A DNA stretch of 48,534 nucleotides from Eubacteriales bacterium. Its GTDB lineage: Bacteria; Bacillota; Clostridia; Oscillospirales; CAG-272. Shown piece by piece: positions 2,976-20,174 of this stretch (position 1 is its first letter; each line of letters begins with the position of its first letter). The stretch covers positions 1-48,534 of the forward strand of contig JAZNFZ010000030.1 of the NCBI GenBank assembly GCA_045576195.1, given 5' to 3'. The translations under genes were made by a program, and so were the position numbers. Below the pieces are notes generated by a model that did no database searches, was not told the DNA's origin, and was given only the letters and a program-made list of their open reading frames with translations.

Positions 2976-4628
2976 ATGAACGTAGTAATATACGCTCGAT
3001 TTTCAAGCCATAGTCAGACCGAGCAATCCATCGAAGGTCAGTTAAAGGTCTGTTACGAATATGCCGAATCTCACAATTACACTATTGTGGGTGAATATAT
3101 CGACCGCGCGCAAAGCGGTAAGTTTGATAACCGCGCAGATTTCCAAAGAATGATTGCGGATAGCGACAAGCATACCTTTGAGGGTGTGCTTGTCTATCAG
3201 CTTGACCGCTTTGCACGTAACCGTTACGATAGTGCAATATACAAAGCCAAGCTGAAGAAGAACGGAGTCCGAGTGATGTCTGCCAAGGAAAATATCTCGG
3301 ACGATGCCTCGGGCATTCTTATCGAGGGTGTTCTTGAAAGTATGGCAGAATACTATTCCGTAGAGCTTGCGCAGAAGATAAACCGAGGTATGGCAATCAA
3401 CGCAGAGAAATGTCTATCCAACGGCAGCAATCCCGGACTTGGATATAAGGTAAACAAAGATCGCACCTTTTCGGTTGACGAGGAAGAAGCGGCAATCGTC
3501 CGCGAGATCTACGAGCGTTACGCAAGCGGAGAAACCAAAGCCGAGATCGTCAAGGACTTACAACGAAGGAAGGTCAAGACCTCAATCGGTAACGAGTTTA
3601 CCTACAACAGCCTCAGCCATCTTCTCAAAAACAAACGCTATATCGGCATATATTTATACAAAGGAGTTGAAACGCCCGGTGGAATGCCGCGTATTATGGA
3701 CGACGACTTATTCTATCGGGTACAAGCGCTTATGAACAAGAACAAATCCGCACCTGCGCGGACTCGCGGTGAAAATGAATACCTTTTGACAACCAAGCTT
3801 TTCTGCGGTCATTGCAAGGAAATGATGGTCGGCTACGGCGGCACGGGCAAGTCGGGCAGACAGTACCATTATTATAAATGCAAGAACTCTCGCAAAAACA
3901 AATGCGATAAGAAGGTTGTCGGTAAGGAGTATATTGAAAACCGCGTAATCGAAGTGTGCCTGCAAATGCTCACCGACGATAAGATACGCTATATTGCAAA
4001 GCGGGTTGCGGAGGAATGCAACAAGAGTCCCGACAACCTTTCAATAAAGGAAATCAAGAAAGCCATCAAAGAGGTAGATACCGCGATTGAGAACCTTTGG
4101 AAAGGCATTGAGCAAGGACAAGCGGTGGATATGTTGACAGAACGTCTTAACCGCCGCCAAGCCGAGAAAACCGAATTGGAAACACAGCTTGCTATTGAGA
4201 GCAACAAGAAAATCTGTTTGACCGAGGCGCAGATATATGCCTTTCTTGATTTCGTTTGCGAAATGCCGATGGACGATTTCAATAAGCGCAGAGCGCTCAT
4301 CAACATCTTCGTACACTCGGTCTATCTGTACGATGACCATTTCACGTTGATCATCAACGCGAGCAAGAAGCCTTTGAGCATCGACAATATCCCGCTTGAC
4401 GATATTGAAGAAGCTTTTGAGGGCGAAAATGAAGGAAAGGAGGGGTGTTCGTCTATGGCGACACCCGCTCCACCAGCGCAAAAGAGCCGCAAATGCGGCT
4501 CTTTTTTTATGCGTTGGTGGACCCGAGGGGACAAATCGAAACCCTGCGAAAGGTGCGAAACAAAAAGAGGTGGGGGAGAGAATGGAAGGCCTTTTTTGAG
4601 GGGAGCGCAGGCTGTGGCGCACCTTTAA
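2976..4628 (+). CDS. Large serine recombinase (resolvase/invertase N-domain, recombinase domain, zinc ribbon, coiled coil)
   Basis: 550-aa ORF. Catalytic-serine N-terminus VVIYARFSSHSQTEQSIEGQ, motif YQLDRFARN, and Cys-rich ribbon CGHC...YYKCKNSRKNKC. RBS AGGAGG. The last ~53 codons (4470-4628) are encoded by the tandem repeat, so the true C-terminus is uncertain. Confidence 0.9.
   Translation: MNVVIYARFSSHSQTEQSIEGQLKVCYEYAESHNYTIVGEYIDRAQSGKFDNRADFQRMIADSDKHTFEGVLVYQLDRFARNRYDSAIYKAKLKKNGVRVMSAKENISDDASGILIEGVLESMAEYYSVELAQKINRGMAINAEKCLSNGSNPGLGYKVNKDRTFSVDEEEAAIVREIYERYASGETKAEIVKDLQRRKVKTSIGNEFTYNSLSHLLKNKRYIGIYLYKGVETPGGMPRIMDDDLFYRVQALMNKNKSAPARTRGENEYLLTTKLFCGHCKEMMVGYGGTGKSGRQYHYYKCKNSRKNKCDKKVVGKEYIENRVIEVCLQMLTDDKIRYIAKRVAEECNKSPDNLSIKEIKKAIKEVDTAIENLWKGIEQGQAVDMLTERLNRRQAEKTELETQLAIESNKKICLTEAQIYAFLDFVCEMPMDDFNKRRALINIFVHSVYLYDDHFTLIINASKKPLSIDNIPLDDIEEAFEGENEGKEGCSSMATPAPPAQKSRKCGSFFMRWWTRGDKSKPCERCETKRGGGENGRPFLRGAQAVAHL
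4470..4520. other. 51-nt palindrome with bidirectional-terminator-like core (copy 1); candidate recombination site or terminator
   Basis: CCACCAGCGC-AAAAGAGCCGC-aaat-GCGGCTCTTTTTTTAT-GCGTTGGTGG. The outer 10-nt arms are complementary with one G-T pair. The core is a 7-bp GC stem flanked by an A-run and a T-run. Confidence 0.6.
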
Positions 4629-4677
4629 GCAGCCGAGGGCGGCAATGACGCCCTTGCCTGCGGGGTTCCGATTCCCC

Positions 4678-4728
4678 CCACCAGCGCAAAAGAGCCGCAA
4701 ATGCGGCTCTTTTTTTATGCGTTGGTGG
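4678..4728. other. 51-nt palindrome with bidirectional-terminator-like core (copy 2)
   Basis: Identical to 4470-4520, one period (208 bp) downstream. Confidence 0.6.
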
Positions 4729-4885
4729 ACCCGAGGGGACAAATCGAAACCCTGCGAAAGGTGCGAAGCAGAAAGAGGTGGGGGAGAGAATGGAAGGCCT
4801 TTTTTGAGGGGAGCGCAGGCTGTGGCGCACCTTTAAGCAGCCGAGGGCGGCAATGGCGCCCTCGCCTGCGGGGTTCCGATTCCCC

Positions 4886-4923
4886 CCACCAGCGCAAAAG
4901 AGCCGCAAACGCGGCTCTTTTTT
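4886..4923. other. Truncated third palindrome: left arm and core hairpin kept, right arm replaced
   Basis: CCACCAGCGC-AAAAGAGCCGC-aaac-GCGGCTCTTTTTT, then cttgtaacag instead of atgcgttggtgg. The array ends exactly after the T-run. Confidence 0.6.
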
Positions 4924-4924
4924 C

Positions 4925-5320
4925 TTGTAACAGAAAACCACGCGATAGTGGCGTGGTTCGAAAAAGGCTATTGCCGATGAGAGGAAGCAAATAGAGGGCG
5001 AGAGTAGGATGTATTATAAGAAAGGCTCCCTTGTGCAAAGGGAGCTGTCGCCGCAGGCGACTGAGGGATTGTTGAACATAGAAAACAAAGCCAAAAGAGC
5101 AAAAAGAGAAAATCAAATTACAATCCCTTCGACGTTTTCTTACGAAAACGCCACCTCCCTTTACACAAGGGAGGCTTGAGACTTAGTCCCGCTTGAGCGG
5201 GGTTTCGTAACAAATGCATGGCTGGCAGGCCAATAAAAAGCGCACTTGTGCGCAGCCAGTAATATTAGGGCTATGCCCGAAACTGAAATACCCCCCGTTT
5301 TACGGGGGGATATTTATTTC
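4925..5320 (+). ncRNA. Candidate large structured non-coding element, copy A (unassigned family; strand inferred from the T-rich tail after the terminal hairpin)
   Basis: Collinear homology with 19755-20174. At least 7 hairpins. Compensatory changes between the copies in 3 stems. No shared ORF. Ends in a GC hairpin plus T-rich tail. Confidence 0.45.
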
Positions 5321-5323
5321 TTT
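5291..5323. terminator. Intrinsic-terminator-like hairpin closing element copy A; may also terminate the convergent AraC-family gene
   Basis: CCCCCCG-tttta-CGGGGGG followed by atatttatttcttt on the + strand, and by tatttcagttt on the - strand. Confidence 0.6.
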
Positions 5324-5333
5324 AACTGCAGGC

Positions 5334-6155
5334 TCAAGTGGGATTTTGCCTCCGAAAAGCTGAGGGGGATACGCCCCGAAAGCGGCGGAAGGTCTTGGTG
5401 AAATAGGAAAGGTTTTCAAAGCCGCACCGTCTGGCAGCCTCTGCTACCGTGCAGCCACCGTGGAGCAGCTCTGCAGCCGCATCGCAGCGGTAGCGGTTGG
5501 TGCTTTCGATCACAGTCCTGCCCGTCAGTCGCTTGAATTCGCGGCAGAGCGCGTATTTGTCAAGCAGTACTCTGCGGGAGAGCTCGTCCAGCGTGATCCT
5601 TTTTTCGTAATTTTGGCGGAGATAGAGAAGTGCCTCCTTCACCGCATTCGTTGCCGCGCCGACGGTTGGCTGCTTTTCCCGCGGCATAGCATAGCGGGAG
5701 CAGAGCAGGATCAGGATGGCAAGCAAAAGGTGAGAGGCTCTTGCCTTTTGCAGGGGGTCCTCCTTCTCGCCGTATACCCGCGTCAGATCCTCCATCAGCC
5801 GCACCATCTCACTGTCTCTGATGTGAGGGGAGAAGGCCAGCGCCTCGTAGTCAATGCCGTGCTGCTTGCAAAAATCGGTGTTGACGATCAGGCAGGTGTA
5901 GGTAAGGTGGTCGGCGGTGTCGGTATAGTGGATGACGTTGGAGTCTACTACGACGATATCGTTTTTCGCAAACGCGTAGCGCTCACCGTTCAGAAGAACA
6001 GAGCCCTCACCTCCCAGGCAGAGCTGAAGCTCAATGTTTTCGTGCCAATTTTTCTCATGGCTGAGATTGTGGGGCGTTCTCTCAAGCCCCGCGTGCAGCA
6101 CAAAGGGTAGCGCGTGCCCTGCGGCGGTGTGGATCTCGTAGCGGATGTTTTCCAT
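5334..6155 (-). CDS. AraC-family transcriptional regulator (cupin-like sensor domain plus HTH)
   Basis: 273 aa. C-terminal AraC HTH signature (ITLDELSRRVLLDKYALCREFKRLTG ... GFENLSYFTKTFRRFRGVSPSAFRR). Divergent from the next gene. Confidence 0.9.
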   Translation of the reverse strand: MENIRYEIHTAAGHALPFVLHAGLERTPHNLSHEKNWHENIELQLCLGGEGSVLLNGERYAFAKNDIVVVDSNVIHYTDTADHLTYTCLIVNTDFCKQHGIDYEALAFSPHIRDSEMVRLMEDLTRVYGEKEDPLQKARASHLLLAILILLCSRYAMPREKQPTVGAATNAVKEALLYLRQNYEKRITLDELSRRVLLDKYALCREFKRLTGRTVIESTNRYRCDAAAELLHGGCTVAEAARRCGFENLSYFTKTFRRFRGVSPSAFRRQNPT

Positions 6156-19705: not shown

Positions 19706-19756
19706 GGCATGAGCGTGATACTCCGTTAAGAGTATCACGCTCATGCCGTGCTTTTT
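19706..19756 (+). terminator. Intrinsic terminator of the kinase operon (unusually long, perfect 18-bp stem)
   Basis: GGCATGAGCGTGATACTC-cgttaa-GAGTATCACGCTCATGCC followed by gtgcttttt. Confidence 0.8.
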
Positions 19757-20174
19757 GTAAGACGAAAACCCCGCCATAGTGGCGGGTTTCCATAAAGGCT
19801 TTGCCGATGAGCAGAAAGCAAATAAAAATTCAGCGTAGAATGATCTTGAGTCAAAGGCTCCCTTGTGTAAAGGGAGCTGTCAGCGAAGCTGACTGAGGGA
19901 TTGTTTTGTGTAGATTATCGCTTTTTACAATCCCTCCGTCACGGCAAGCCGTGCCACCGCGACCACCGTGAAACGGTGTGTCGACGTGCTCACCGCAGGC
20001 GAGCACAGCTCCCATTTACACAAGGGAGGCTTGGTTTTAGTCCCGCTTGAGCGGGGTTTCGTAACAAATGCATGGCTGACAGGCCAATCCTTAGCGCACT
20101 TGTGCGTAGTCTGTAGTATTAGGGATATACCCGAAACTGAAATACCCCCCGCTATGCGGGTGGATTATTATTTT
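19755..20174 (+). ncRNA. Candidate large structured non-coding element, copy B (paralog of 4925-5320)
   Basis: Collinear with copy A. The last ~135 nt is ~85% identical by hand count. Stems are conserved with compensatory substitutions, and apical regions differ in length. Ends with CCCCCCGC-tat-GCGGGTGG plus attattatttt. Confidence 0.45.

Follow-up and report, generated by a model that had tools for sequence, protein, structure and literature searches.

How did a 208-bp tandem array come to lie directly beside the gene of a large serine recombinase? The question is raised by positions 4470–4923 of the stretch analysed here, one entire contig of 48,534 nucleotides (JAZNFZ010000030.1, hereafter the window) from an Eubacteriales bacterium. 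The initial annotation had considered footprints of repeated integration and excision at attachment (att) sites, host DNA holding the insertion target, and small terminated units. The array is probably chromosomal DNA lying just 3′ of ssrA, the gene of transfer-messenger RNA (tmRNA): two complete copies, followed by part of a third, of a module that contains no genes and is built around the tail of ssrA, doubled by unequal crossover or slippage, with the recombinase element as a separate, later insertion. The source genome (G000) is a 1.77-Mb short-read metagenome-assembled genome (MAG) in 124 contigs; other G-numbers below denote the compared genomes, and C-numbers contigs (the window is C30).

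Tandem Repeats Finder reports a single strong array in the window, at 4470–4923, with a period of 208, 2.2 copies, 97% matches, no indels and a score of 873. Period, copy number and number of substitutions agree with what had been annotated: alignment of 4470–4677 with 4678–4885 gives exactly four substitutions (4560 A/G, 4563 A/G, 4648 A/G and 4655 T/C). The last of these (4655/4863, T>C) indeed converts a G·T pair into G–C in the hairpin 4629–4661 / 4837–4869. The 38-nt third copy (4886–4923) carries one change, in the terminator loop. Each unit is opened by a 53-nt near-palindrome (4469–4521) whose core is an intrinsic-terminator hairpin followed by a T-run. The units are GC-richer than the recombinase gene, as had been noticed (0.58–0.605 against 0.45–0.49), and the array unit is unique within its own genome. 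Its layout is as follows.

4470–4677, + strand: unit 1, made up of CCACCA, the terminator palindrome and the structured module; its first ~180 nt are homologous to post-ssrA DNA of G004, G020, G025 and G018.
4678–4885, + strand: unit 2, 98% identical to unit 1, scoring 130.3 bits with the covariance model R1 (see below).
4886–4923, + strand: partial unit 3, comprising only CCACCA and the terminator hairpin; its palindrome is without the outer right arm.
4480–4508, again 4688–4716 and 4896–4923, + strand: ssrA-type terminator hairpin and T-run (inverted repeats I11, I17, I18 and I23).
4514–4544, again 4722–4752, + strand: arm I, an inverted Watson–Crick complement of the tmRNA 3′ end, TTGGTGGACCCGAGGGG..ATCGAAACCC.
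4548–4626, again 4756–4834, + strand: arm H2, a helix of GAAAGGTGCG (4548–4557) with CGCACCTTT (4618–4626) enclosing a 60-nt variable loop.
4629–4661, again 4837–4869, + strand: arm H3, a GC hairpin of GCAGCCGAGGGCGGCA with TGACGCCCTTGCCTGC.
4662–4683, again 4870–4891, + strand: D2*, a direct repeat of the tmRNA 3′ end in decayed form, GGGGTTCCGATTCCCC plus CCACCA.

The terminator hairpins are the core of the 53-nt palindromes at 4469–4521 and 4677–4729; the third copy is listed by the terminator scan, at a position that agrees with that of the post-ssrA terminator in relatives. Arm I and D2 pair with each other as a closing helix. The reverse complement of arm I reads GGGTTTCGAT..CCCCTCGGGTCCACCAA, to be compared with GGGGTTCGATTCCCCTCGGATCCACCA in the ssrA of relatives. 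D2 is intact in G020, G029, G036 and G031 (GGGGTTCAGATTCCCCTCGGATCCACCA); in the window the T-loop of D2* is 8 nt long and the acceptor strand TCGGAT (6 nt) is deleted, identically at both unit junctions. With their terminator palindromes and a conserved fold (see below), the units resemble the small, terminated and structured kind that had been suspected.

The connection with the host comes from genomes of the same genus. In four of them (G004, G020, G018 and G025) weak DNA matches place a homologue of the unit's first 80–180 nt directly 3′ of ssrA. The sequence at the ssrA end of these relatives is ...GGGGTTCGATTCCCCTCGGATCCACCA|ACGCAAAGAGCYGCAAAAGCGGCTCTTTTTTT..., which identifies the CCACCA of the unit as the last six bases of ssrA and the unit palindrome as the ssrA terminator. 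Two earlier suggestions are thereby upheld: the units are host-derived, with a homologous module after ssrA in relatives, and they hold the insertion target of the element, since the TCCACCA end of ssrA stands at the start of unit 1. It had also been said that an array found unchanged in the absence of the element would be a plain chromosomal satellite. The first half of this is essentially what the relatives show, having the module where no element is inserted; the second half is not, in that the repeat is a structured module framed by copies of the target. The sole ssrA of the source genome consists of the first ~300 nt only, at the end of contig C90 (C90:1–301, minus strand), and ARAGORN found no complete tmRNA gene in the source genome. 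At least nine ssrA genes of the genus are no more than a few hundred bases away from the end of their contig, so that the ssrA site commonly breaks assemblies.

The window begins inside a mobilizable element that encodes a NikA-like protein, a MobA/VirD2 relaxase, ParB, a 73-aa open reading frame (ORF) and the large serine recombinase. Two of its features meet the array.

2976–4628, + strand: large serine recombinase ORF, 550 aa (Pfam Resolvase PF00239, Recombinase PF07508 and Zn_ribbon_recom PF13408).
4445–4475, + strand: element-side half (P arm) of attR, with the motif GTGTTCGT (4445–4452), a 17-nt spacer and the predicted crossover centre 4470 within TCCACCA (4469–4475).

The catalytic domain of the recombinase resembles that of the TP901-1 integrase. 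The ORF is conserved up to 4475 (..APP, encoded by CCACCA), and 4476–4628 is read-through into host DNA, the frame remaining open to the stop at 4626–4628, 159 nt into unit 1. Ten homologues from other genera and families of the order (63–87% identity) all end in ..GTGTTCRTC..N..GCTCCACCA and then diverge; beyond GCTCCACCA their flanks are host-specific and resemble ssrA terminators. In the only three genomes of sufficient contiguity (G391, G226 and G136) ssrA is found upstream, 20–30 kb from the recombinase gene and oriented alike. There attL reads ssrA..CTCCACCA|AACAGGTATTGGACGAACACC, with the conserved end of the element directly after ssrA (...CTCCACCA|AACAGGTATTGGACGAACACCTATTTCTTCAGCGGCGG). 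An intact attP (P–P′) is present in G304 as GTGTTCGT - 35 nt - ACGAACAC, 51 bp long with 8-bp terminal inverted repeats. Reconstruction from G304 and from attL and attR of the other three puts the attP centre at the first C of CCACCA, on TCC; in window coordinates this predicts a crossover centre at base 4470, where the array begins. The identity between attL and attR extends over only 7–9 bp, (GC)TCCACCA.

These sites bear directly on the proposal that the repeats are att footprints of the adjacent recombinase, left as it integrated and excised its element again and again. In favour of this, the array directly adjoins the recombinase gene, the predicted crossover centre falls on the first base of unit 1, and the unit junctions resemble the attB region in having a pseudo T-arm, CCACCA and a terminator. 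However, the products of a serine integrase would carry P or P′ arms. The GTGTTCGT/ACGAACAC motif occurs once only, at 4445: the P motif is found once in the source genome (4444–4475), the P′ motif not at all in that genome, and neither of them inside the units. Copies 2 and 3, which carry neither arm, can therefore not be ascribed to this enzyme; the unit junctions are pseudo-tails of host type. A boundary shared by independent insertions, together with inverted half-sites, was found only for the junction 4445–4500, attR in the window spanning 4445 to about 4500. At the unit junctions, moreover, the 6-nt deletion alters the distance between the half-sites; ssrA is followed by homologous modules also in genomes that do not have this element at the site; and members of the family stand behind tRNA genes where no such recombinase is involved. 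The initial suggestion of an att-site array is thus not sustained, and we regard this origin as very improbable.

The large serine recombinase element is a separate and later arrival at the TCCACCA end of ssrA, as judged from the junction sequences. The attP of its family is located within the 3′-terminal part of the recombinase gene (loci L049, L048, L047, L055, L105, L107 and L108), which would explain the run-on reading frame in the window. The excised form would encode ..APP-N(R/V)YWTNTYFF(S/K)GGFA.., a tail conserved in G391, G226, G136, G304 and G027 (at a contig end). Integration is predicted to exchange this natural tail (..PP-NRYWTNTYFFSGGFA..) for host-encoded residues, here 51 codons running through the ssrA terminator, and the layout may thus constitute an integration-dependent switch of the recombinase C-terminus. 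At one locus (L055, G304:C4:42398–46882) the recombinase homologue is followed by the intact P–P′ junction with no host flank; this copy is accordingly a tandem or circular form, or lies on a plasmid-like contig. In a genome of a different family (L047, G136:C28) the flank beyond attR has CCACCA, a terminator palindrome, an inverted tail-like arm and a helix pair, which suggests analogous, sequence-unrelated modules outside the genus. Exact look-ups of the window recombinase and of the flanking AraC protein returned no record, and exact-pattern searches of metagenome and genome contig collections gave no match to the intact attB or to the unit junction. Relatives of the AraC protein in metagenomes reached at best 37% identity, and no conspecific locus was found there for comparison of copy number or of the empty site.

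How widespread the module is was examined by aligning the ssrA-flank modules of seven species and folding them with RNAalifold; from this the covariance model R1 was built and run on 40 genomes of the genus. The consensus fold is Y-shaped, with arm I and D2 as the closing helix and H2 and H3 as its arms. R1 matches the two window units (130 bits each) and ssrA modules in at least ten species, as well as about 20 further stretches of 125–134 nt at other loci, including one in the source genome (G000:C78:108–241), often as tandem pairs or triples. In 15 of the 16 tRNA-hit loci scanned with ARAGORN, the module lies 34–42 nt 3′ of a tRNA gene, just past its terminator. The tRNA hosts are tRNA-Ala(GGC), Ser(GGA), Lys(TTT) and Val(CAC). 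At these loci the 3′ end of the module copies the local T-arm, acceptor and CCA, while the 5′ end is the complement of the local tail, for example GGTGCTCCTGCGGGG (Lys) and GGTGGAGCATAGGGG (Ala). The complement is perfect even where the gene has G3·U70, and arm I is therefore not copied from the 5′ strand of the gene.

Across the genus a site behind ssrA or a tRNA-Ala, Ser, Lys or Val gene holds between zero and three copies, and both ends always match the local gene. The module is present in G005 (ssrA, module, flank X) and absent from G006 (ssrA, flank X); with identical flanks, G019 has two tandem units where G022 has one; and in G031 a single unit is followed by tail and terminator once more (1.2 copies). 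Intact second tail copies were found in G020, G029, G036, G031, G008, G005, G022 and G019. In G008 and G005 other DNA is inserted after the distal tail copy of the module and not after ssrA itself, so that spare tails serve as landing sites. When R1 was run on 150 other genomes of the order, with stricter filters, no match was obtained outside the genus; at this sensitivity the sequence family is a genus-level one, and as a fold-conserved module family it is apparently undescribed.

Other small non-coding sequences occupy the same sites. In a 162-nt gap between a tRNA-Lys gene and its first R1 match (L169, G020:C24) stands a compact module of ~100 nt with a 4-nt H2 loop (GATGGAAGAATCG-CCAA-GCGATTCTTCC), from which the long variable loop appears dispensable. 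The ssrA flanks of G005, G006, G062 and G026 (L077, L083, L079 and L084) hold a different small non-coding array of repeated TATATCATCA-type words and short variable hairpins; in G026 this array stands between ssrA and the displaced module. A short non-coding sequence GCGGCAAGTTGCCGCCCCCAATMATCGGGGGA.. follows ..TCCACCA after a tRNA-Ala module (L164, G036:C78), an ssrA module (L081, G008) and ssrA itself (L089, G002), and is a putative further small unit using the end shared by tRNA-Ala and tmRNA. The sequence after the tRNA-Ala module of G036 was also considered as the end of an element, and dismissed: it is merely ~500 bp of non-coding DNA before a gene for an EamA-type transporter. A search for a 16-nt motif across the family gave about as many matches in controls as in real sequences and was dropped.

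The fold was assessed on 34 copies. Of the cells predicted to pair, 92% do so, against 36–54% in controls with slid partners. Changes on both sides occur in 20 of 29 pairs, amounting to 125 cells where shuffled alignments give ~33, and none of 500 shuffles reached as high. H2 (helix 3) is 99.6% paired over the 34 copies with seven of its eight pairs changed on both sides, and compensatory changes are seen in seven of the nine pairs of H3 (helix 4). In the paired columns G·U occurs 58 times and A·C 10 times, an excess that favours folding on the tRNA-sense strand. The minimum free energy fold of 4514–4683 also gives the Y-shape, at −74.2 kcal/mol (z = −2.7). Covariation and the G·U asymmetry argue for a single-stranded, tRNA-sense fold under selection; the folded molecule may be an RNA trailer that arises by read-through, or else a strand of DNA. 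We model the module as a terminator-bearing trailer cassette that would be transcribed, or would take up its single-stranded fold, in the tRNA sense and would also supply spare copies of the integration target.

Two other readings of the fold were set aside. A tRNA-like cloverleaf, or mini-tmRNA, was rejected as the main fold in view of a 5′ arm that is a perfect complement (A3–U70, not G3·U70), of several modules without a 5′ T-stem, and of the deleted acceptor strand in the window. A leader peptide (ATG at 4583, MEGLF*) was rejected since the species do not share any small ORF in the variable loop. Rfam 15 gave no match at the gathering score in the window, and at E ≤ 10 only sub-threshold noise in 4300–5400; no family, rtT and tmRNA included, accounts for the unit, and for rtT there is no match even at E ≤ 10.

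The closest tested analogue is the set of tyrT–tyrV repeats of E. coli. In NC_000913.3, tyrV is followed by 3.1 repeats of 178 bp whose units end in AATCCTTCCCCCACCACCA, the last 19 nt of the tRNA from the T-loop, and contain the tail complement GGGGAAGGAT; part of this region is annotated as the small RNA RttR and tpr. In both cases tandem units follow directly after a tRNA-type gene, in similar copy number (about 3.1 in E. coli), and each unit ends in the last ~19 nt of the gene, from T-loop to CCA, with a complement of the tail upstream. They differ in that the host gene in the window is that of tmRNA, that the terminator palindrome opens the unit, that five kinds of gene are used within one genus, and that the window module has no conserved small ORF. 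R1 has no match at the tyrV locus.

The E. coli repeats, with their annotated RttR, also lend themselves to a different view of the modules, as primarily functional trailer RNAs of tmRNA and tRNA operons that are released by tRNA-processing enzymes, the array serving dosage or reinforcement of the terminator rather than being a mobile-element relic. The strong covariation and the G·U excess on the tRNA-sense strand agree with this, as do the tRNA-like 3′ ends with CCA, each followed by a terminator. Yet a strong terminator precedes each module, where no promoter-like site is seen; species differ freely in whether they have the module and in how many copies, and its tail has decayed in the window; and no Rfam family, rtT included, matches the window modules, nor does R1 match the E. 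coli repeats. We consider such a role possible but doubtful.

The doubling in the window can be modelled in two steps. The starting point would be a single module flanked by repeated segments of tail and terminator, as in G031. Unequal homologous crossover or replication slippage between these segments would then convert it into the arrangement R-Z-R-Z-R, that is, 2.2 copies. Unequal crossover is the most likely origin of the two 98%-identical units. The same 6-nt deletion at both junctions and the presence of only four substitutions indicate that the duplication is recent.

A second full copy produced by the assembler is an improbable alternative, in which the true locus would have 1.2 copies and two strain variants were threaded serially via the repeated terminator. 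The window is a contig of a 124-contig MAG, the four unit differences could be strain single-nucleotide polymorphisms, and arrays of the module family are often found at contig ends. On the other hand, two- and three-copy arrays are present in other assemblies of the genus, and the junctions can be told apart. At the unit-to-unit junction the terminator has an AAAT loop and is followed by the right arm; the terminal copy has an AAAC loop and is followed by a dispersed repeat. Words spanning ~35 nt or more need a real junction between units, and this difference argues for at least two real units.

The dispersed repeat is the structured element that had been noticed to begin where the array stops, after the T-run of the third hairpin at 4923, and both parts of that description hold. 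It occupies 4921–5320 as a hairpin-rich, non-coding sequence of ~400 nt, with a second copy in the window at 19752–20173. More than 20 full or partial copies occur in the source genome (also on contigs C121, C24, C52, C93, C20, C73, C87, C12, C47 and others), and hundreds of pieces across the genus. All full copies start right after a terminator T-run (..TTTTTTGTAACAGAAAACC..), which explains the apparently precise stop of the array. The repeat ends in a terminator-like hairpin of its own, so that copies can stack, and it is modular, its sub-blocks also occurring alone. It has no Rfam match, and a BLAST search of a plasmid collection returned two short matches only, both to this repeat.

Several points weigh against the tmRNA-tail interpretation of the array and its fold. 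The last ~70 nt of ssrA and the left junction of the element (attL) are unassembled in the source MAG; the linkage of C90 with C30, and insertion at the true ssrA end rather than at a distal copy, are what we infer. The copy number of the array rests on one short-read MAG assembly. The alignment of the 34 copies was structure-guided and fitted to its own model, and is thereby biased toward it, and the reverse strand also folds well (−66 kcal/mol, with the same z-score). The array contains no promoter-like site and every module starts right after a terminator, so that transcription of the module remains a proposal.

A further competing explanation is that the units were added singly by site-specific recombination. 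A 208-bp circle of tail, terminator and module would re-integrate at a copy of the tmRNA tail, in the manner of a cis-mobilizable element (CIME), with some recombinase specific for tRNA or tmRNA ends acting in trans. Copies of the target 3′ end delimit the modules exactly, and species differ by the precise presence or absence of a module. The tRNA-Lys arrays contain diverged members with different terminators, as successive insertions predict. In several modules the identity with the target begins inside the T-loop, and the module on G000:C78 combines a Ser-type core with Lys-type ends, the switch lying in the T-loop. There is also a precedent in Dehalococcoides, where arrays of ssrA direct repeats accompany proposed cis-mobilizable islands (PMC3146451). 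Nevertheless, a candidate enzyme was not identified, the tail copies in the window are poor sites without the 6 nt of the acceptor strand, 98% identity across 208 bp fits a simple unequal crossover equally well, and the C78 chimera could also have arisen by ectopic gene conversion. For the array in the window, such accretion is in our judgement unlikely, if less so than an assembly error.

CIMEs of Streptococcus thermophilus are kilobase-long deletion derivatives of integrative and conjugative elements (ICEs), recombined by the integrase of a neighbouring ICE. Like the units described here they are non-autonomous, bounded by att-like repeats and in tandem with an integrative mobilizable element; in the window, by contrast, the recombinase beside the array crosses over at a different point, and the units contain no sites for it. 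Integron attC arrays are likewise tandem units with imperfect palindromes whose structure rather than sequence is conserved, with strand polarity, an IntI integrase, a GTTRRRY core and cassette ORFs. The modules share with them a structure-conserved imperfect palindrome with strand polarity (covariation; G·U 58 against A·C 10) and terminal bases identical to the primary insertion site. They differ in that the palindrome arms are copies of tRNA or tmRNA ends, the unit ends are not GTTRRRY, and cassette ORFs are absent. No IntI-type integrase is encoded among the neighbours (relaxase, ParB, serine recombinase, AraC, YgjV-like and AddA); the rest of the genome was not searched.

The ssrA islands of Dehalococcoides, whose serine recombinase is DsiB and whose ssrA direct repeats are 20 bp long (McMurdie et al. 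2011, PMC3146451, where the concept of accretion at ICE att sites is also cited), resemble the window in joining a large serine recombinase element at the tmRNA gene with downstream repeats of the ssrA 3′ end and gene-poor units proposed to be cis-mobilizable. Those islands are kilobases long and have their crossover in the T-loop; their integrase is encoded beside attL, on the reverse strand, together with a second, small recombinase. In the window, the crossover is in TCCACCA, a single recombinase sits at the distal end with attP in its gene, and the 208-bp non-coding units are not made by the recombinase. In the tRNA and tmRNA fragments left by islands (Islander, PMC4383910; Williams 2002/2003), a regenerated gene and displaced 3′ fragments likewise mark the ends of units; island units carry an integrase and cargo, however, whereas those of the window are gene-less, with an additional inverted tail and a conserved fold.

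The element and the modules are of separate interest. In the former, a family of large serine recombinases uses the tmRNA-gene end as attB and has attP within its own coding sequence, so that integration rewrites the C-terminus of the enzyme. According to the Islander paper of 2014 (PMC4383910), the tmRNA gene is the most enriched target and no serine integrase was known to use tRNA-type genes; to the latter statement Dehalococcoides is the known exception (PMC3146451). As for the latter, small structured modules stand behind tmRNA and tRNA genes across the genus; their covariation is unusually clear, and they match none of the described RNA families. We put forward only tentatively that they represent a class of cassettes, not described before, which have no genes but a conserved fold and install themselves behind tRNA and tmRNA genes, each flanked by one direct copy and one perfect complement of the last ~20–28 nt of the gene that it follows. 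If that were true, a new mechanism of mobility would be indicated by the matching of ends at five targets, by the T-loop as the place of the switch and by the strand specificity of the fold. Candidates are recombination of a folded single strand that imitates the double-stranded end of the gene (attC/CTX-like) and copying with the tRNA tail as template; the alternative would be a new class of trailer RNAs of tRNA operons. To our knowledge the E. coli tyrT repeats are, after 45 years, still unexplained, and the modules of the window link to them. Should the modules prove to be mobile, or to be processed RNAs, this would bear on the role of tRNA-gene ends as universal landing pads of mobile DNA, and on why assemblies break there.

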